NCBI GenBank assembly: GCA_046598935.1
Contig: JBKJHW010000046.1
Location: 7,071-71,070 of the forward strand
DNA length: 64,000 nt
Direction of reading: 5' to 3'
Source: Vicinamibacterales bacterium
Lineage (GTDB): Bacteria > Acidobacteriota > Vicinamibacteria > Vicinamibacterales > SCN-69-37
The first letter of the stretch is position 1; each line of letters starts with the position of its first letter. Below are positions 15,842 to 64,000 of the stretch, one piece after another. Under the pieces are notes generated by a model, which was not told where the DNA came from, searched no databases, and saw only the letters and a list, made by a program, of their open reading frames with translations. A program made the translations under genes and the position numbers.

Positions 15842-16864
15842 CTATTCGGCGCGAAGCGCCGCATCCCCAGGCACGAAGTGCGTGAACCCGCCGCCGAGCG
15901 GGCCCTCATCAAGCGTGAGAGGCGGCGCTTTGGTCAGCTCGCCGATGCAGGAGACCGGCGTATGGCGCGCGGCGATCCGCTCGAATCCGCGGCGCCGACG
16001 GGGCGGAACTGCGAACAGCAATTCGTAATCTTCGCCGCCCCGAAGGGCCTGTTCGAGCGTGGCTTCCGGATGCACCGGTACCTTAGAAGAGATGACCGTC
16101 GCGCCAGTGCGCGAGGCTTCTGCTATCTGCGTGACACCGTCAGCCAAACCGTCGGAAAGGTCCATACAGGCCGACGCTAACCGATTCGAGGCAACTTCTC
16201 TCGAGACGTTCAGAAGCAACACAGAGCGTTCGTACGACTTCGCAGGGTGTTCGTACGAGGGTTCGGACGAACCCTCAGAGTGTTCGTACGAACGCTCTGA
16301 TTCGTACGAACCCCCTGGCTCGTACGCACGTCGACGTTCGAGCTCTGCAGCGGCTCGCCCGAGCATCCCTGTGACGTACAGGAGGTGGCCCGCGGATCCT
16401 CCGCTTCTGGTGAGAATGCGGCGCCGGCGCGCGGTGCCGATGAGCGTGATGTCGATGATGATCGGTCCCGGCGAACTCGAGATGTTGCCGCCGATGATCG
16501 TGAGCTTCGCCGATTTCGCCAACGTCAAGAAGCCATCGATGAGCGCGTCGAAATCGTCGAGCGCCAATGCGCCCGGCAGGGCGAGGCTTAACGTCGCCGC
16601 GCGCGGCGACGCGCCCATCGCCGCGAGATCACTGAGGTTGACGGCGAGCGATTTCGCGCCGATCTCGCGCATCGAGTTCCAACGGCGATCAAAGTGCACG
16701 CCTTCGATCTGACAGTCGGTCGTGACGACATCGAGCTCGCCCCGTTCAGGTTCGATCACCGCGGCATCGTCGCCGATGCCGATGTGCACCCATGCGGGCG
16801 CATCGCCGGCGCGTTCGCGGATGCGCTCAATGAGGCCGTGCTCGCCGATGTGGGAGATTTTCAC
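15842..16864 (-). CDS. thiL: thiamine-monophosphate kinase
   Basis: Contains KISHIGEHGLIERIR, IGDDAAVIEP, DLAAMGA and MDLSDGLADG. GTG start. It carries a repeat-derived (S/A)YE-rich insertion, described under the repeats. Confidence 0.85.
   Translation of the reverse strand: MKISHIGEHGLIERIRERAGDAPAWVHIGIGDDAAVIEPERGELDVVTTDCQIEGVHFDRRWNSMREIGAKSLAVNLSDLAAMGASPRAATLSLALPGALALDDFDALIDGFLTLAKSAKLTIIGGNISSSPGPIIIDITLIGTARRRRILTRSGGSAGHLLYVTGMLGRAAAELERRRAYEPGGSYESERSYEHSEGSSEPSYEHPAKSYERSVLLLNVSREVASNRLASACMDLSDGLADGVTQIAEASRTGATVISSKVPVHPEATLEQALRGGEDYELLFAVPPRRRRGFERIAARHTPVSCIGELTKAPPLTLDEGPLGGGFTHFVPGDAALRAE
16222..16327. repeat. nested palindromic repeat inside thiL (five copies of the self-complementary octamer TCGTACGA or a near-copy)
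   Basis: A perfect 16-bp inverted repeat, CAGAGCGTTCGTACGA (16222..16237) with TCGTACGAACGCTCTG (16284..16299). An inner hairpin GAGGGTTC-GGAC-GAACCCTC (16257..16276). TCGTACGA occurs at 16230, 16251, 16284 and 16302, with a degenerate TCGTACGC copy at 16320. Confidence 0.85.
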
Positions 16865-16904: not shown

Positions 16905-17121
16905 CGATTCACCGTGAATTGAGTGAATGCGGCACTATCGAAGAATCCCGCTTTGCCGTGTGGGGAGGTCGAACGGACCTGTTAGACAGGTGGAACCGCT
17001 ATAAAGACTGCGCTTTAGGCTTCCTCACCACGGAGGCATGCTCACCACGCAGCGTCGCAGCTCGCTTGGTATTAAAAAACATCGGCCCAAGCGACACTCC
17101 AACCATCACGAACAAAGCAGG
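16905..17121 (-). ncRNA. ssrS: 6S RNA (SsrS); ends approximate (+/-15 nt)
   Basis: The minus strand reads ...GGGCCGATGTTTTTTAATACCAAGCGAGCTGCGACGCTGCGTGGTGAGCATGCCTCCGTGGTGAGGAAGCCTAAAGCGCAG.... This parallels E. coli 6S (GAGCCGAUAUUUCAUACCACAAG...GGUGAGCAUGCUCGGUCCGUCCGAGAAGCCUUAAAACUGCG). A closing stem TTCGTGAtggTTGgAGTG / CACTCAAtTCACGg is possible. It lies immediately downstream of zapA, as in E. coli. Confidence 0.7.
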
Positions 17122-17127
17122 AAGACA

Positions 17128-20921: not shown

Positions 20922-21000
20922 GTACGAAAGAAAACGACATCGGGTGTCGTTTCCGCCGTGCGGACCAACGGAAACGACACCCGATGTCGTTTTCTTCTAC
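20922..21000. repeat. family-A composite palindromic element (two inverted AAACGACA-YCGGG-TGTCGTTT hairpins)
   Basis: The sequence is GAAAACGACATCGGGTGTCGTTTCC..N16..GGAAACGACACCCGATGTCGTTTTC. It lies between the pheS start and the DUF4242 stop codon, and the stop codon sits inside the element. Confidence 0.85.
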
Positions 21001-21350: not shown

Positions 21351-21357
21351 AAGACTT

Positions 21358-21384
21358 CTGCCTTCTGCCCTTTGCCTTCTGCCC
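21358..21384. repeat. family-D G-rich repeat copy (GGGCAGAAGGCAAAGGGCAGAAGGCAG on the minus strand)
   Basis: It directly follows the rplT stop codon. It matches the arms of the 24645..24819 element at 24 of 27 positions. Confidence 0.7.
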
Positions 21385-21747
21385 TTACTTGGTCGCGACC
21401 GCCGCCTTGGCCTGCTCGGCGACCTTCGCGAACGCGGTCGAGTGACGCGCGGCCAATTCTGCAAGGCTCTTGCGGTCTAACCCGATCCCGGCCTGTTTGA
21501 GGCCGCGGATGAGCTGGCCGTAGGTGAGGCCATTCTGGCGCGCGGCTGCGTTGATGCGGACGACCCAGAGCCTGCGGAAGTCGCGCTTTTTGCGGCGGCG
21601 TCCCGAAAACGCGTAGTTGTCGGCCTTCGCAACGGCTTCCTGAGCGGCCTGGTACAGCTTGCTCTTGGTGGCGTAAAAGCCCTTCGCGCGCTTCAGCAGC
21701 TTCTTGCGCTTCGCGCGGCGGACTGTTCCTCGTTTAACTCGCGGCAT
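21385..21747 (-). CDS. rplT: 50S ribosomal protein L20
   Basis: Sequence [32 protein letters not shown]... matches L20. Confidence 0.95.
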
Positions 21748-24630: not shown

Positions 24631-24644
24631 GAGCGTGCCTGATA

Positions 24645-24819
24645 GGGCAGAGGGCAAAGGGCAGAGGGCATAGGTAGAGGAAACAGGAAAGAGGCCAGGT
24701 CAGAGGTCATAGATGAATCGTTGAGGGAACAGGGAGCCATAGAAGCCAAGCCTTTGACCTTTTTCCTATGACCTGGCCTTTGTCCTCAGTCCTCTACCTC
24801 TGATCTTTGCCCTCTGCCC
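24645..24819. repeat. family-D long imperfect inverted repeat (about 175 nt) in the thrS 5' region
   Basis: Four arm pairs are visible: GGGCAGAGGGCAAAG (24645) with CTTTGCCCTCTGCCC (24805); AGGTAGAGGA (24672) with TCCTCTACCT (24790); GGCCAGGTCA (24693) with TGACCTGGCC (24769); GGTCATAG with CTATGACC. Confidence 0.8.
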
Positions 24820-28828: not shown

Positions 28829-28898
28829 AAGAATAAACGACATCGGGTGTCGTTTTCGCCCGCATTCCTCGAAAACGACACCCGATGTCGTTTATTCT
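28829..28898. repeat. family-A composite palindromic element
   Basis: The sequence is AAGAATAAACGACATCGGGTGTCGTTTTC..N13..GAAAACGACACCCGATGTCGTTTATTCTT. The outer 14-bp arms are perfect. It lies in the divergent region between the phosphodiesterase gene and ruvX. Confidence 0.85.
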
Positions 28899-28905
28899 TT
28901 TCGCT

Positions 28906-29343: not shown

Positions 29344-30344
29344 TGCTGCGCAGACTCACACTGCTCGCCGTCGTGCTGTGTGTGTGCGGCGCCGGCGGCG
29401 CGTGGTGGGCGTGGAGTCAGTTCGACACGCCGTACCGCGGTTATTCCGATCCTGAAGTGTTTGTCGACCTGCCCACGGGCTCGTCAACGGCGGATATCGC
29501 CGGACGGCTTTCGGCGATGGGCGTCGTTCGCGATCCGCTGATGTTCCGGCTCGCGGTTCGGGCGGCGAAGGCCGACCGGCACTTACAGGCCGGCGAGTAC
29601 CGCTTCTTCGACGCGTCGTCGCCGAATCAAATCATCTCGCGGCTTCGTCGGGGCGACACGTTCAGCCACACCGTCACATTCCCGGAGGGTCTGACGATTC
29701 GCGAGATGGGCGCGATTTTTGAGCGCGAAGGGCTCGGCACCGCGCAGGAGTTCATACGCGCGGCGGCGGATCGAGCGTTGATCGCCGATCTGGATCCGGC
29801 CGCGAAGAACCTCGAAGGCTTTCTTTTTCCGAGCACATATTCGCTGCCGCGCCGCGCAGGCGCCGCCGGCTTCGTGCGCGCGATGGTCAAGGAATTCAGA
29901 AACAATATTTCGGCCGAGCCTCTGCCCGACGGCATCGCATCGTTGCGCGATCTCGTCACGCTCGCGTCGATCATCGAGAAGGAAACTGGAAACTCCGCGG
30001 AACGCGCGACCGTTGCCGCCGTGTACCACAATCGCCTGAGGATCGGCATGCCGCTGCAGTGCGATCCGACGGTGATCTACGCGATGATGCTGCGCGGGCG
30101 CTGGGACGGCAATATCCGCAAGCGCGATCTGCAGATCGATTCGCCGTACAACACCTACAGGTACCCGGGGCTGCCGCCGGGCCCGATCGCCTCACCGGGC
30201 CGCGCGACGCTCGATGCCGCGCGACGTCCGGCCGACGTGAACTATCTCTATTTCGTCAGCCGCAACGACGGCACGCATGTGTTCGCGCGGACGCTCGACG
30301 AACACAATCGAAACGTCCGCGCTTTCCAGAGATTAAGGAATTAA
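29343..30344 (+). CDS. mltG: endolytic murein transglycosylase MltG (YceG-like)
   Basis: Contains a transmembrane anchor, TFPEGLTIREM, ASIIEKETG and QCDPTVIY...YNTYRYPGLPPGPIASPG. Confidence 0.85.
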   Translation: MLRRLTLLAVVLCVCGAGGAWWAWSQFDTPYRGYSDPEVFVDLPTGSSTADIAGRLSAMGVVRDPLMFRLAVRAAKADRHLQAGEYRFFDASSPNQIISRLRRGDTFSHTVTFPEGLTIREMGAIFEREGLGTAQEFIRAAADRALIADLDPAAKNLEGFLFPSTYSLPRRAGAAGFVRAMVKEFRNNISAEPLPDGIASLRDLVTLASIIEKETGNSAERATVAAVYHNRLRIGMPLQCDPTVIYAMMLRGRWDGNIRKRDLQIDSPYNTYRYPGLPPGPIASPGRATLDAARRPADVNYLYFVSRNDGTHVFARTLDEHNRNVRAFQRLRN

Positions 30345-30383
30345 AGTCGGGAGTTAATTTGTAATTAACTCCCGACTTTAATT
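30339..30383. repeat. family-B palindromic element (perfect 21-bp arms)
   Basis: The sequence is AATTAAAGTCGGGAGTTAATT-tgt-AATTAACTCCCGACTTTAATT. It begins at the mltG stop codon. Confidence 0.9.
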
Positions 30384-30452
30384 GTTTCCAGTACGCTCGC
30401 CGCGCCAGCCGGATGGCTGGAAAAGACCAAGAAAGAGCAATTAGCGGCAATT

Positions 30453-30489
30453 AATGTCGGGAGTTAATTGGCAATCAACTCCCGACTTT
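30453..30489. repeat. family-B palindromic element (18-bp arms, 2 mismatches)
   Basis: The sequence is AATGTCGGGAGTTAATTG-g-CAATCAACTCCCGACTTT, about 22 nt beyond the nadK stop. Confidence 0.85.
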
Positions 30490-50327: not shown

Positions 50328-51097
50328 ATCTGATTCTTATAGAGCCTGCAGAAGTCAGATCTGACGGGACCGCGCGCATAGCCGGTCCGCAGGCCGATCA
50401 CATCCGGAGAGTCCTCAGGAGTTCTCCCGGCCACGAGCTCCGCGTCGGCGTGATTGATGGTCCCGCCGGGACCGCCACCATCACCGCCGTGACCGACAGT
50501 TTTGTTGAGCTGGCCTGCCGGCTCGATGCTGAACCGCCGCCCCGCCCGGAAGTCGATCTCCTCCTCGCATTGCCTCGACCCAAAGTGATGCGCCGCCTCT
50601 GGGCGCAACTGGCCGCGCTGGGCGTCGGCCGGATCATCCTCACAAACGCAGAACGCGTCGAGCGCGATTACTTCGATACCCACATCCTCGAGCCCGAAAC
50701 CTATCGCTCGCTCCTGATCGAGGGCCTGCAACAGGCGCGCGACACGCGTCTCCCAGTTGTCACCATCCACAAACGGTTCAAAGTGCTGATTGAAGACGAG
50801 TTGGACGCGATGTGCCCTCAGCGCAGGCGCCTCGTCGCCCACCCCGGGAGCCAGCCAGAAATAGGGGTCGGGTGTTATTTCGAAATAACACCCGACCCCT
50901 ATTTCCCCTATTTCCCCGACCCCTATTTCCGCGATTCGCGTACGCTTCTCGCGGTTGGGCCCGAGGGCGGATGGAACGCGTTCGAGTTAGGGATGCTCGA
51001 GGCGCGCGGATTTCGGCCGATCAGCCTCGGTCCCCGATCACTACGGACCGACACGGCGTGTATTGCATTGCTCACGCTCGTTCACACGCGCCCGTAG
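50324..51097 (+). CDS. rsmE: 16S rRNA (uracil1498-N3)-methyltransferase
   Basis: Contains a PUA-like N-terminus (ADHIRRVLRSSPGHELRVGVIDG), LLLALPRPKVMRR and LLAVGPEGGW...LGPRSLRTDTA. It carries a repeat-derived insertion. Confidence 0.8.
   Translation: MNLILIEPAEVRSDGTARIAGPQADHIRRVLRSSPGHELRVGVIDGPAGTATITAVTDSFVELACRLDAEPPPRPEVDLLLALPRPKVMRRLWAQLAALGVGRIILTNAERVERDYFDTHILEPETYRSLLIEGLQQARDTRLPVVTIHKRFKVLIEDELDAMCPQRRRLVAHPGSQPEIGVGCYFEITPDPYFPYFPDPYFRDSRTLLAVGPEGGWNAFELGMLEARGFRPISLGPRSLRTDTACIALLTLVHTRP
50858..50929. repeat. family-C palindromic element inside rsmE (48-nt perfect palindrome plus reiterated arm end)
   Basis: GAAATAGGGGTCGGGTGTTATTTC|GAAATAACACCCGACCCCTATTTC spans 50858..50905. 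It is followed by CCCTATTTC and CCCGACCCCTATTTC. Confidence 0.9.
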
Positions 51098-52467: not shown

Positions 52468-53458
52468 CGTCGGCGTCGCGCAGTTTGCGGCCGACGCGCG
52501 CCACTACCTGACGCAAACCCCGCGTCAGATGGCGTCGCGCTATTTCTACGACGCGCCCGGATCCCGATTGTTCGACGCGATCTGCGAACTGCCGTGGTAT
52601 CGCGTGACGCGCGCCGAGACGGCGCTGCTGCGGCGCCATAATGCCGAGATCCTCCAGCGCGCCGGCTCGCCGTCGCGCATCGTCGAACTCGGCTCAGGCA
52701 GCGGCGCCAAACTCGCTGTGCTCGCCGAAGGAATCCAGTCGACGACGGCGCCGATTGAGTTACATCTGATCGATGTCTCGTCGGCGGCGCTGGCGGCTGC
52801 CGCACGCGCGCTCGATGCGGTGCCGAATGTGGAGATCATCACGCATCACGCGACCTACGAATCCGGGCTCGACGCTGTCAGGGCGAAAAGTCGGGAGTTA
52901 ATTCAATTAACTCCCGACCTTAATTGGCCCTCACAGTCGGCCGGTCTGACGCTGGCGTTGTTTCTCGGGTCCAATATCGGCAACTTCGATCGCGACGCCG
53001 CCGACGCGCTGCTCGTGCGATTGCGCGCCGCGCTCACGCCCGGCGATTCGCTGCTGCTCGGCACGGATCTCGTGAAGCCGGAAGCCGACCTGCTGCTCGC
53101 GTACGACGACCCGCTGGGCGTCACGGCGGCTTTTAATCTGAATCTTTTCGCACGGATGAATCGAGAGCTCGGCGCGACCTTTGCGCTCGACCTTCTCAGG
53201 CACGTCGCTGTCTGGAACGCCGCCGAATCGCGCGTCGAGATGCACGTCGAGGCACGCGCCGAGCACCGCGTGACGGTGCCGGCGGCGGGTCTTGATTTTG
53301 TCCTTGAAGCCGGCGAGCGCATCTGGACAGAGAACTCGCACAAATACACGTCTGTCGACGTTGATCGCATGCTCGATCGCGCGGGCTTTGCCGTGGCTGA
53401 GCGGTGGACCGACGTTGATGCGGGGTTTGCGCTGACGCTGGCGTCGGCGCGGGCCTAG
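52436..53458 (+). CDS. egtD: L-histidine N(alpha)-methyltransferase EgtD-like
   Basis: Contains RYFYDAPGSRLFDAICELPWYRVTRAETALL, VELGSGSGAK and FLGSNIGNF. The ATG at 52436 overlaps the egtB end by 32 nt. Confidence 0.75.
   Translation: MPASVQSPTADVGVAQFAADARHYLTQTPRQMASRYFYDAPGSRLFDAICELPWYRVTRAETALLRRHNAEILQRAGSPSRIVELGSGSGAKLAVLAEGIQSTTAPIELHLIDVSSAALAAAARALDAVPNVEIITHHATYESGLDAVRAKSRELIQLTPDLNWPSQSAGLTLALFLGSNIGNFDRDAADALLVRLRAALTPGDSLLLGTDLVKPEADLLLAYDDPLGVTAAFNLNLFARMNRELGATFALDLLRHVAVWNAAESRVEMHVEARAEHRVTVPAAGLDFVLEAGERIWTENSHKYTSVDVDRMLDRAGFAVAERWTDVDAGFALTLASARA
52886..52925. repeat. family-B palindromic element inside egtD
   Basis: AAGTCGGGAGTTAATT-c-AATTAACTCCCGACCT followed by TAATT. 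It is translated in-frame as KSRELIQLTPDLNW. Confidence 0.9.
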
Positions 53459-53525: not shown

Positions 53526-56198
53526 CTGGCGGCTCTCACTCCCGGCACACGTCTCGGCTCCTACGAAATCATCGCCCCGCTCGGCGCAGGCGGGATGGGC
53601 GAGGTCTATCGCGCGAAGGATGCGCGGCTCGGTCGTGACGTCGCGCTGAAAGTCCTCCCGCCAGCGCTCGCCAAGGATCCCGAACACCGGGCCCGTTTCG
53701 AGCGCGAGGCGCGAGCGGCCTCCTCGCTGAACCATCCGCACATCTGCGTGATCTACGACGTTGGATCCCAGGATGGCGTCGATTTTCTCGTCATGGAATT
53801 GCTCGAAGGTGAGACGGCCGCTGATGCGGCGGCGCGCGGCCCGATGCTTCTCGCCGACGTGATGCGCACGGGCGCGCAAATGGCCGATGCGCTCGATCGC
53901 GCGCACAAGAAGAACCTGATCCACCGCGACGTGAAGCCCGCCAACATCATGCTGGTCAGGCCCTCGTCGAAGAGCGGTCCTCTCCACGCGAAGCTGCTCG
54001 ACTTTGGCCTCGCACGTCCGACCACGTCAACGGTTACTGATCAGACGATGACCAAAGCGCTGACGGCCGCGGGGACGATCGTCGGCACGTTTCAGTACAT
54101 GTCGCCGGAACAGGTCGAAGGCCGCGATGTCGACGCGCGTACGGACATCTGGTCGCTCGGCGCGACCTTGTATGAGATGGCGACCGGCGTGCGCGCATTC
54201 GAGGGCTCGAGCACCGCGAGCCTGATCAGCGCCGTGTTGCGTGATGAACCGAAGCCGATGTCCGGACGCGTGCCGCTCACGCCGCCCGCTTTCCAGCGCG
54301 TCGTGTCGCAGTGTCTCGCGAAGGATCCCGAGGATCGCTGGCAGAGCGCCGGCGATGTGAAACGCGAGCTTGACTGGATCGCGAGCGGTGGAGGATCGGG
54401 CTTTGCCACCGCTTCGATCCCGAACTCGGGCGTGCGATCGAACGCCAACACCTGGATCACGAGACTGATAGTGGCCGCCGCGCTCGTGTTGACGGCCGCC
54501 ACGGCGTGGTGGTTCGGCCGGAGCGCTACGAGCGCTCCGGCGCTCTGGTCGAACTTCGCGCAGCTCACCGATGCGTCCGGGGTCGAGACGGCGCCGAGCC
54601 TTTCTCCTGACGGCAGCTCGATCGCGTATTCGAGCGCGGCGAACGGCAGCAGCGACATCTACGTGCAACGGGTCGGCGGCCGCAACCCGGTGCTTGTCGC
54701 CGGCGATCCAGGTCGCGACGAAGACTGGCCAGCGTACTCACCGGACGGAAAACAGATCGCGTTCAACATCAGCAGCGGCAGTGGCGGCATTTTCGTTGTC
54801 GGCGCCACCGGCGAATCGGTACGACGGCTGACCGACGCCGGATCGAATCCCGCCTGGTCCCCGAACAGCCTGCGCATCGTTTACGCCTCCGAGCAGGTGC
54901 TGGATCCGTATCAACGATTTGGTGTCAGCACGTTGTGGACCGTGGGCGTCGATGGCGGCACTCCGATCAGGATCGACGATGGGGACGCGGTTCAGCCGGC
55001 GTGGTCGCCATCGGGAAAGCGGATCGCGTTCTGGCAGAACGTGAACGGCCAGCGCGACATCGCGACGATTCCCGAGGCCGGCGGTCCGCATGTGCTGGTA
55101 ACGAACGACGCGGCCGTCGATTGGGCGCCCGTGTGGTCTCCGGACGGCAAGTGTCTGTATTTTGCGAGCGACCGCGGCGGATCGATGGGGATCTGGCGGA
55201 TCGGGATCGACGAGGGCACAGGCAAACCGATGAGCGCGCCTGAGCCGATCGCGGCCGGTGTGGACATTCAGATGGACCTGCCGCACGTGTCGTTCGACGG
55301 CACGTCAATCGTGTTTCGATCGAAGATCGAGTCGGTGAATCCGGCGGCGATCGCGTTCGATCCCATCACTGAGCGCGCCGGCGCGGTCACGCTCCTTCAA
55401 CATCGCACCGGCAAGTTGATGCCGACCGACGTCTCGCCGGACGGCAAGTGGATCGCGCTCAACAATACCTATGAGCGCCAGCAAGACATCTTCATCATGC
55501 GTCCTGACGGAAGCGGACTCTCACGCGTGACCGACGACGACGCGCGCGACTGGATCGGAAAATTCACGCCGGACAGCGCGGCGCTGACATTTCAGTCGAA
55601 CAAGGCCGGTAAGTACGATGGGTGGCTCGTGCGCCTCGATGGCAGCGGCCGAACCAGGCTGACCTCAGGATTTGCGTACGATACCGGCACGCCTTTGTTT
55701 TCGGCGGACATGCGTCGCCTGATGGTCGCGCTCGACCCTGAGGTCTGGATCGGCAGTCCGCCCTGGCCGATGACCAGCACTACGGCAAAGCGGATCACGA
55801 TTCCCGCGCTGACCACCGGACGGCTCCTTCCGACGACCTGGTCGCGCGACGGCCGATGGCTCGGTGGCACGATCGCGGGTCCCGCCGGCAACGCGGTCGG
55901 CATCGCGCTCTTCGACGTTGCGACCTCTACCATCCGCCAGCTCAACGCTGACGGGGTCACCGATCCGCTTGAATTGCCGGGTGGCACGCGCGTGATTTTT
56001 CTCACGGCCGCTGGTGCGCTGGTCGTGCAGGACATTCACTCGCTGAAGCGGCGAGAAATACCGGTGGCGTGGCCGTTGCCGTCGAGCAGCAGTAACTCGC
56101 TCGCCGTCTCGCCGGACGGTACAACGATTTACTACGCCGCGGCGCAGACGGAAGCCAACATCTGGAAGGTCTCGCAGCCCAAAGTGGTGAAGAAGTAG
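53526..56198 (+). CDS. Ser/Thr protein kinase with a transmembrane segment and C-terminal TolB-like (PD40) beta-propeller repeats; start codon unresolved
   Basis: The kinase domain includes GAGGMGEVYRAKD, HRDVKPANIM and DFGLA, followed by repeated SPDG..IAF/Y units. The first ATG (53595) lies inside the Gly-loop. Upstream in frame, after the TAA at 53511, the only start-like codon is CTG at 53526. Confidence 0.7.
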   Translation: MAALTPGTRLGSYEIIAPLGAGGMGEVYRAKDARLGRDVALKVLPPALAKDPEHRARFEREARAASSLNHPHICVIYDVGSQDGVDFLVMELLEGETAADAAARGPMLLADVMRTGAQMADALDRAHKKNLIHRDVKPANIMLVRPSSKSGPLHAKLLDFGLARPTTSTVTDQTMTKALTAAGTIVGTFQYMSPEQVEGRDVDARTDIWSLGATLYEMATGVRAFEGSSTASLISAVLRDEPKPMSGRVPLTPPAFQRVVSQCLAKDPEDRWQSAGDVKRELDWIASGGGSGFATASIPNSGVRSNANTWITRLIVAAALVLTAATAWWFGRSATSAPALWSNFAQLTDASGVETAPSLSPDGSSIAYSSAANGSSDIYVQRVGGRNPVLVAGDPGRDEDWPAYSPDGKQIAFNISSGSGGIFVVGATGESVRRLTDAGSNPAWSPNSLRIVYASEQVLDPYQRFGVSTLWTVGVDGGTPIRIDDGDAVQPAWSPSGKRIAFWQNVNGQRDIATIPEAGGPHVLVTNDAAVDWAPVWSPDGKCLYFASDRGGSMGIWRIGIDEGTGKPMSAPEPIAAGVDIQMDLPHVSFDGTSIVFRSKIESVNPAAIAFDPITERAGAVTLLQHRTGKLMPTDVSPDGKWIALNNTYERQQDIFIMRPDGSGLSRVTDDDARDWIGKFTPDSAALTFQSNKAGKYDGWLVRLDGSGRTRLTSGFAYDTGTPLFSADMRRLMVALDPEVWIGSPPWPMTSTTAKRITIPALTTGRLLPTTWSRDGRWLGGTIAGPAGNAVGIALFDVATSTIRQLNADGVTDPLELPGGTRVIFLTAAGALVVQDIHSLKRREIPVAWPLPSSSSNSLAVSPDGTTIYYAAAQTEANIWKVSQPKVVKK

Positions 56199-63722: not shown

Positions 63723-64000
63723 ATGAGCCTGGCCCCCGGCATCCGCCTCGGTCCCTACGAAATCGTCGCGCCCATCGGCGCGGGCGGGATGGGCGAGGTC
63801 TATCGCGCGAAAGACACAAACCTCAACCGCGACGTCGCGCTGAAAATTCTGCCGGAGTCGTTCGCGCTTGATGCCGATCGTGTCGCGCGGTTCAAACGCG
63901 AAGCGCAGGTGCTCGCGTCGCTGAATCATCCGAACATCGCCGCGATCTACGCGGTGGAAACGACACCCGATGTCGTTTCCACCGCCCTCGTCATGGAACT
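63723..64000 (+). CDS. Ser/Thr protein kinase, 3'-partial (continues beyond the window)
   Basis: Sequence MSLAPGIRLGPYEIVAPIGAGGMGEVYRAKDTNLNRDVALKILP...LNHPNIAAIY.... A GCTATACT -10 box at 63707..63712 lies 10 nt upstream of the ATG. Confidence 0.8.
   Translation, partial: MSLAPGIRLGPYEIVAPIGAGGMGEVYRAKDTNLNRDVALKILPESFALDADRVARFKREAQVLASLNHPNIAAIYAVETTPDVVSTALVME
63956..63980. repeat. family-A single hairpin inside the kinase CDS
   Basis: GGAAACGACA-CCCGA-TGTCGTTTCC forms a 10-bp stem. It is translated in-frame as (V)ETTPDVVS. Confidence 0.85.

Follow-up and report, generated by a model that had tools for sequence, protein, structure and literature searches.

A palindromic repeat array within thiL behaves as a local DNA-level repeat tolerated by the protein in a group of soil Acidobacteria

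The thiamine-phosphate kinase gene (thiL) encoded in the 64-kb stretch of DNA analysed here (the window) carries an in-frame array of short palindromic words, which behaves as a local DNA-level repeat tolerated by the protein in one group of soil Acidobacteria. On balance, we consider it probable that the codons of an R-S-Y-E-R stretch seeded a palindromic minisatellite, which slippage and template switching have both spread and kept uniform. The dispersal, size and many-gene insertion features of Rickettsia palindromic elements (RPEs) are missing from the array, and no account of a repeat of this kind in ThiL turned up in a full-text literature search.

The array, with its six cores and their spacers, occupies positions 16222-16330 of the window and encodes residues ~179-215. 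By direct reading and pattern search, the + strand octamer TCGTACGA starts at 16230, 16251, 16284 and 16302 (four copies in 80 nt) and a degenerate octamer, TCGTACGC, at 16320. A perfect 16-bp inverted repeat is formed by exact reverse complementarity between 16222-16237 (left arm, CAGAGCGTTCGTACGA, consisting of the anchor core and its 3' coding flank, Y-E-R-S-V) and 16284-16299 (right arm, TCGTACGAACGCTCTG, an inverted copy of the anchor and flank that reads S-E-R-S-Y-E), and a hairpin with an 8-bp stem and a 4-nt loop lies at 16257-16276 (GAGGGTTC-GGAC-GAACCCTC). These elements agree with the preliminary description of this DNA, which had, however, overlooked that the centre of the hairpin (TTCGGACGAA, 16262-16271) is itself a sixth core copy, making two degenerate cores beside the four copies of TCGTACGA. 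Written on the + strand, the cores are core 6, the anchor (GTTCGTACGACT, 16228-16239; mRNA AAG TCG TAC GAA CGC, K-S-Y-E-R), at the position of R-[YH]-x-R-P in other ThiL proteins; core 5 (GTTCGTACGAGG, 16249-16260; P-S-Y-E-H); the degenerate core 4 (GTTCGGACGAAC, 16261-16272; G-S-S-E-P), at the centre of the hairpin; core 3 (GTTCGTACGAAC, 16282-16293; R-S-Y-E-H), a perfect 12-nt palindrome; core 2 (ATTCGTACGAAC, 16300-16311; G-S-Y-E-S); and the degenerate core 1 (GCTCGTACGCAC, 16318-16329; R-A-Y-E-P). Core spacings are 12, 18, 21 and 33 nt, each a multiple of 3, with the array mixing 18-, 21- and 12-nt steps. Across the whole window, TCGTACGA was observed 6 times versus 0.88 expected from dinucleotide-preserving shuffles, the two copies outside the array (13629 and 59816) being isolated, and the Poisson chance of at least four copies in 110 nt is ~2 × 10−13. 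The array is not an assembly artefact, since the same array is present in an assembly made independently from a separate sequencing run (L001, Logan SRR31159432; 99.97% identity over 3781 nt).

The host gene, a minus-strand open reading frame at 15842-16864 encoding 340 aa, is thiL, as had been proposed: its product scores 228.8 bits against the equivalog model TIGR01379 (cutoff 184.15), contains the Pfam domains AIRS (PF00586; residues 31-144, 7 × 10−25) and AIRS_C (PF02769; residues 189-314, 6 × 10−10), and is matched by ThiL chains in the PDB at 3 × 10−35. The array is in frame, the encoded protein including the peptide RRAYEPGGSYESERSYEHSEGSSEPSYEHPAKSYERS, and on the coding strand each octamer reads S-Y-E and the degenerate octamer A-Y-E, which bears out the translation first given. 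In an AlphaFold model built from 38 homologues (mean pLDDT 88.9), residues 182-211 form a coil between two confident helices (170-181 and 212-226), with mean pLDDT values of 59, 48 and 50 for residues 181-190, 191-200 and 201-210, respectively, and the repeat-bearing loop is thus predicted to be disordered. Solved ThiL structures align to residues 6-175 and 228-330 only, leaving the loop outside the alignment. Among 80 more distant relatives, the segment between YVTG and DLSDGL ranges from 56 to 86 aa, and in more distant ThiL proteins it ends in a conserved R-[YH]-x-R-P-x-P-R motif. Because the 3'-most core copy (S-Y-E-R, 16229-16238) is located where distant ThiL proteins have this motif, it probably represents ancestral codons and not an insert. 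The earlier view that the segment is no conserved part of ThiL therefore holds in part: structures that align only up to residue 175 and again from residue 228, together with array-free clade members that are up to 38 residues shorter, speak for an insert, but the 3'-most copy is probably ancestral.

Codon choice and reading frame bear on whether the repeated unit is DNA or peptide. Across eight thiL genes (the window and seven relatives), S-Y-E is spelled TCG TAC in 18 of 18 instances, with GAA third in 17 of the 18, and Arg codons just before a core are CGT in five of five, the DNA mostly reading (C)GTTCGTACGAAC(G); in these genes TCG accounts for 0.45 of Ser codons, GAA for 0.47 of Glu codons and CGT for 0.08-0.12 of Arg codons. 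Four-fold sites elsewhere in thiL are near saturation (mean codon identity of 0.57 versus 0.45 expected at saturation), and only 19 of the 252 positions in 21 cores from seven genomes deviate from the 12-nt consensus, with cores exactly GTTCGTACGAAC in all eight copies of four lineages (L201, L203, L204 and L206). One relative, L207, has six copies of the word distributed over all three reading frames (TTC GTG CGA; GTT CGC ACG AAC, V-R-T-N; GGT TCG TAC; GTT CGT ACA GAA; AGT TCG TAC GAA; and GCC GTA CGA ACC). In the sequences compared, the repeated unit is DNA and not peptide, because uniform codons, near-saturated synonymous sites and copies in three frames are impossible for a peptide-level repeat. 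The preliminary description had regarded the same peptide encoded by non-repetitive DNA in relatives as evidence against its reading; the opposite was seen, with the same nucleotides encoding the peptide.

These data weigh on the alternative that the S-Y-E peptide is itself selected in the protein, for instance as a modification site or as an acidic linker rich in Tyr and Ser, with the DNA repeat secondary. Such selection would sit well with the several relatives that keep in-frame S-Y-E heptads and with a loop that is acidic and hydrophilic, as is usual for disordered linkers. However, the codon counts show no use of synonymous alternatives, L207 reads the same DNA as V-R-T in other frames, L120 and L208 have quite different peptides in this position (S-G-S-S-E-P and P-G-T-L-A), the repeat is missing from many clade members, and the loop is both predicted to be disordered and missing from solved ThiL structures. 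We give this alternative almost no weight, and protein-level selection for S-Y-E appears to be essentially, or at least largely, excluded by the codon and reading-frame data.

To place the array among relatives, the thiL DNA of thirteen of them was compared with that of the window. The closest ThiL homologues are 62-82% identical, with length differences mainly at the loop, and in the related Acidobacteria clade (the source name of P0008 is Acidobacteria, and that of P0080, ~52% identical, is Vicinamibacterales) the same thiL site holds 0-6 core copies; the array is not private to the window genome. At the protein level, P0002 and P0007 have three S-Y-E heptads, P0003, P0008 and P0009 two, and P0012 one, with no heptad in, for example, P0006 and P0005; even sister proteins differ (four cores in P0002 versus none in P0005). 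The array is absent from L210 and L211 and decayed in L209 (21-nt period kept, cores degraded) and P0010 (loop reading P-S-H-P-H-E-A-R-S-Y-A-R), and relatives without the array share gene neighbours with array carriers. Within the 90%-identity cluster of P0010, members differ at their termini only and no loop length differences were found. A scan of metagenomes for ThiL proteins yielded mostly relatives of 45-50% identity, owing to the wide occurrence of the ACMDLSDG pattern; the close ones were only L120 and L144, and the others gave the loop-length distribution.

Periods among these relatives are 18 or 21 nt, and the consensus unit, CAGAGCGTTCGTACGAACGCTCTG, is an imperfect palindrome (21-24 nt per unit). 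At its most regular (in L201, L203 and L204), the array repeats every 21 nt as [GTTCGTACGAAC][sCTCnGAGs], in which the 12-nt palindrome is followed by a 9-nt spacer that is palindromic except for its central base, so that two cores and a spacer make up a 33-nt near-perfect palindrome; the heptad encoded by such arrays is S-Y-E-[R/P]-S-E-[R/G].

Next, we assessed whether the repeat is local or dispersed. With up to one mismatch, GTTCGTACGAAC has 17 matches in 369 kb of related acidobacterial DNA (the window plus L120-L211), all 17 of which lie in the thiL loop; the 64 kb searched of this genome and ~305 kb of related DNA gave none beyond thiL. Allowing two mismatches adds only stray singletons elsewhere in the 369 kb, and the looser form GTTC-N4-GAAC occurs outside thiL in the window only twice (517 and 15364), not in arrays. 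Because all 17 near-exact copies in the 369 kb searched lie in the thiL loop, the repeat is not a dispersed family of the REP, MITE or RPE type. Of the two interpretations offered previously, a fourth element type, in the sense of a dispersed family, is not supported, and local reiteration of a palindrome is upheld. Avoidance of CGTACG as a restriction site was also considered and rejected, with 31 copies observed in the window versus 18 expected; outside thiL, CGTACG is neither avoided nor strongly enriched. A scan of a genome collection for three copies of TCGTACGA with 7-30-nt gaps returned at least 118 loci, mostly in Streptomyces, Roseovarius and Oscillibacter, with no acidobacterial locus among the matches listed; as candidate relatives of the thiL array these loci were rejected, being ordinary tandem repeats, including some that code for S-Y-E or S-Y-D. 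They include arrays with a 22-23-nt period and a REP-like sequence of Roseovarius, tttTCGTACGAaaa. When other proteins were searched with the 40-aa loop peptide, no candidate had three 5-residue words in common with it.

That a small palindromic element able to move (REP, MITE or RPE-like) inserted in frame, either targeting thiL or tolerated there, is very unlikely in our estimation. The unit is an imperfect palindrome of REP size (21-24 nt), and the window holds other palindromic families (20928-20996, 28829-28899, 30339-30489 and 50858-50905); the core is unrelated to those families, however, its units are contiguous and partly overlapping, without target-site duplications, its 3'-most copy coincides with probably ancestral ThiL codons, and it has no copy beyond thiL in the 369 kb. 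RPEs themselves demonstrate that palindromic elements can enter the surface loops of housekeeping enzymes in frame, and the thiL array resembles them in being palindromic DNA in frame in a housekeeping enzyme that adds a surface peptide tolerated by the fold (PMC10969869). Yet RPEs are palindromic MITEs of ~150 bp that form dispersed families and are found in frame in dozens of unrelated genes (PMC10969869), whereas the thiL units measure 18-21 nt, lie in tandem and, in the 369 kb, are confined to this loop. RPEs and MITEs are defined by an in-frame surface position, which the array has, and by occurrence in several unrelated genes, a length of about 100-150 bp and terminal inverted repeats or target-site duplications; the array is known from thiL only in the 369 kb, its units are shorter, and no target-site duplications are visible.

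REP sequences and BIMEs are extragenic imperfect palindromes of 20-40 nt, of which a genome holds tens to hundreds. The thiL array is similar in that its unit is an imperfect palindrome and its copies are clustered in alternating orientation, but it is intragenic and found at one locus in the sampled DNA rather than in dispersed copies. A second comparison is provided by HIP1 (GCGATCGC) of cyanobacteria, an octameric palindrome that lies within coding regions and is over-represented genome-wide. Although TCGTACGA is likewise an octameric palindrome inside coding DNA, it recurs just twice more in the 64 kb, unlike the genome-wide over-representation of HIP1.

The array also shares features with contingency loci, as short tandem units in a coding region whose copy number differs between related genomes. 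However, phase-variable units, unless the tract lies in a promoter, are not multiples of 3, whereas the thiL periods are (for example, 21 nt in L201, L203 and L204); moreover, the host is a housekeeping gene and not one for a surface protein, and the unit is palindromic. As all spacings in the window array are multiples of 3, a change in copy number would alter the length of the loop and not the reading frame, and the array is identical in the two samples available from one population (n = 2; 99.97% identity between them), so that the suggestion of a contingency or slippage switch was not sustained.

How the array may have arisen is best approached through the minisatellite reading favoured above. 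The seed would have been the codons CGT TCG TAC GAA CG (R-S-Y-E-R), a perfect 14-nt palindrome, at the R-[YH]-x-R-P site. During replication, palindromes may form hairpins on single-stranded DNA, and errors at these hairpins would enlarge the array, slippage duplicating units of 18 or 21 nt in direct orientation or deleting them, and template switching producing inverted copies. The same processes would then homogenise the arms, with copies evolving in concert, and selection would purge only those variants that break the thiL frame or add stop codons. The peptide would be a by-product (S-Y-E-rich in the window, V-R-T-rich in other frames), tolerated because the loop is unstructured. Predicted disorder would likewise make the site permissive, as suggested by a sister clade with an unrelated 15-nt tandem repeat (P-G-T-L-A, the peptide of L208) at the same loop position.

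Four observations are pertinent to this mechanism. L120, with the loop peptide S-G-S-S-E-P, consists of three tandem 18-nt units and a partial fourth, with an 8-nt GTTCAAAG repeat upstream, and all of its copies share a derived core, TCAAGTGAA, that occurs in no other genome; such sharing of derived states within a genome indicates concerted evolution. The spacer of L203 (gctcagagg) is the exact reverse complement of that of L201 (cctctgagc), which three substitutions could also explain. The first two cores of L207 (TTCGTGCGA and TTCGCACGAA) are mutated yet mutually complementary, forming a 13-bp stem, and the window, finally, contains the 16-nt inverted copy of its anchor. The last three, although not polarised on a tree, are consistent with template switching. 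In published work, template switching between short inverted repeats, also within coding DNA, is recognised by homogenised arms and inverted spacers, and it can create and maintain hairpins as well (PMC8604942, PMC8794818, PMC7202029). By these marks, the three cases at thiL qualify as candidate template-switch footprints. A pairwise alignment of the window and L200 arrays was ambiguous because the units are repeated.

Compared with known systems, then, the thiL array works like quasipalindrome (template-switch) mutagenesis combined with minisatellite slippage. Alike are the perfect arms beside imperfect inverted-repeat arms, a spacer whose orientation differs between lineages, paired copies with changes that complement each other, and changes of several neighbouring amino acids that need no adaptive selection. 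The published cases, in contrast, are single inverted repeats and single events (PMC8604942, PMC8794818, PMC7202029), whereas at thiL a word is present up to six times, in tandem and clade-wide.

Several points count against the minisatellite reading. The search covered only about 64 kb of this genome, other parts of which may hold further copies; the flipped spacer may reflect substitutions; no length variation was seen within the population (n = 2); and homogenisation within genomes does not alone account for the identity of the 12-mer between genomes. The persistence of the exact 12-mer would require either that the word is under some constraint, such as DNA- or RNA-level selection, or that perfect palindromes tend strongly to correct themselves.

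Constraint on the word is what would be expected if the array were a selected cis-element, acting either as sites for a dimeric DNA-binding protein or as an mRNA hairpin. In the first version, the 12-bp palindrome GTTC-N4-GAAC would provide putative sites every 21 bp (two helical turns) and hence on one face of the helix; LexA-type sites of this form are found in Verrucomicrobia. In the second, a hairpin would influence how translation pauses where the domains meet, or how stable the transcript is that includes the downstream genes. Conservation of the 12-mer in nucleotides across lineages with near-saturated synonymous sites would suit either version, as would the choices of CGT and GAA, which go against local codon usage, and the retention of the arms CGTTC/GAACG when the centre changes (CGTTC-CTTC-GAACG in L144 and GGTTC-AAGT-GAACC in L120). 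The predicted RNA structure is strong as well. Folding of the window segment, a check that the preliminary description had proposed, gave -63.1 kcal/mol (z = -5.0), and in relatives strong folds are likewise predicted for arrays that have two or more perfect cores (z of -5.5 in L201, -4.5 in L204, -3.3 in L203 and -5.2 in L207), the array-free loops of L210 (+2.1) and L211 (+0.6) being not unusual. On the other hand, the array is missing (L210 and L211) or decayed (L209 and P0010) in close relatives whose gene order is the same; the number, spacing and orientation of copies vary freely; no further sites occur in the 369 kb, the looser form appearing only in the two unarrayed places in the window given above; no U-tract follows the array hairpin; and no candidate binding protein was found. 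On this evidence, a selected cis-element seems unlikely.

In its broader form, this alternative holds that the array of GTTCGTACGAAC is a selected nucleic-acid element within a housekeeping gene, under purifying selection across the Acidobacteria clade and accommodated by the ThiL loop, a reading that we regard as quite unlikely. It could take the form of putative dimeric-protein sites phased at 21 bp or of an mRNA hairpin controlling the translation or stability of the thiL-DUF2062-3D transcript, which lies downstream of 6S RNA.

Together, these results offer a clean bacterial case in which a purely DNA-level process writes new peptide sequence into an essential enzyme: a 12-nt palindrome that is read in three frames, present in 0-6 copies among relatives and uniform although neutral sites of that gene are near saturation. 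Annotators should not take the S-Y-E-rich segment of these ThiL proteins for a domain, a mobile-element family or a phase-variation switch. The array also provides a natural system in which to study how hairpins drive slippage and template switching in a soil lineage of high GC content. More generally, when amino-acid motifs recur in disordered loops, even in 'parallel', selection on the protein need not be the reason.

Upstream of the thiamine-phosphate kinase gene thiL, a 6S RNA gene (SsrS, RF00013) was recovered on the minus strand at window 16941-17126, where the match spans the full length of the model and scores 74.3 bits (gathering cutoff, 46.4; E = 7e-14). The gene is flanked by zapA on one side and thiL on the other, matching the zapA-ssrS gene order of E. 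coli. Identity of the 6S RNA segment to the relatives L200 and L211 was 96-98%, compared with ~81-85% for the flanking genes. Within thiL, an antisense ORF of 217 aa (plus strand, window 16059-16712) overlaps the gene and, because the octamer of the thiL array is palindromic, also encodes S-Y-E or S-Y-D through the array; this frame is probably a spurious high-GC ORF.

Several further repeats and palindromes were found in the window. A repeat search identified a REP-like family with core AAACGACATCGGGTGTCGTTT (five copies; window 20928-20996, 28829-28899 and 63952-63983), arranged as head-to-head doublets at two of the three sites, with perfect 28-30-nt arms and 11-13 nt between them; its core bears no relation to the 12-nt palindromic word repeated in the thiL array. 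A second palindromic family, AT-rich (AAAGTCGGGAGTTAATT...AATTAACTCCCGACTTT; window 30339-30489 and 52904-52931), comprises two 41-nt copies at a spacing of 110 nt, together with an incomplete third one 22 kb from them. Elsewhere, a perfect 48-nt palindrome (window 50858-50905), in which GAAATAGGGGTCGGGTGTTATTTC is directly followed by its own reverse complement, leads into CCCCTATTT tandem repeats (50896-50934), and a 217-nt direct repeat (window 53541-53757 and 63735-63951) has copies that share 74% identity across a distance of 10.2 kb, the copy at 63735-63951 adjoining one copy of the AAACGACA...TGTCGTTT palindrome. Two 32-nt heptamer arrays (window 21354-21385 and 24644-24675; CTTCTGC and TGCCCTT versus AGGGCAG) form an inverted pair that is 88% complementary and encloses ~3.3 kb, and could mark the boundaries of an insertion or of a segment able to invert.

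Beyond the window, the genome scan for clustered octamers also returned a dispersed REP-like element at many loci of Roseovarius genomes (among the matches listed, L013, L023, L035, L044, L058, L072, L082, L100, L108 and L116). Composed of TTTCGTACGAAA palindromes together with doublets of the form TCGTACGA-n-TCGTACGA, this element is a real repeat family with no relation to the thiL array.

The ThiL loop of relatives carries repeats of other kinds. On one metagenome contig (L120, Ga0111538_10633999), two repeat systems adjoin in the loop: an 8-nt unit (GTTCAAAG, ~4 copies) whose frame shifts from copy to copy, and an 18-nt unit (GGYTCAAGTGAACCCTCT, 3.5 copies; peptide S-G-S-S-E-P) in which the centre of the thiL core is altered and the GGTTC/GAACC arms are retained. 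A sister clade (L208 4001-5107, encoding the ThiL homologue P0029; also P0035, P0026 and P0031) has a direct tandem repeat of a 15-nt unit (GGCACCCTGGCACCC, ~7 copies; peptide P-G-T-L-A) that is unrelated to the thiL array. The presence of this unrelated repeat at the same loop indicates that the ThiL loop serves generally as a hot spot of repeat expansion.
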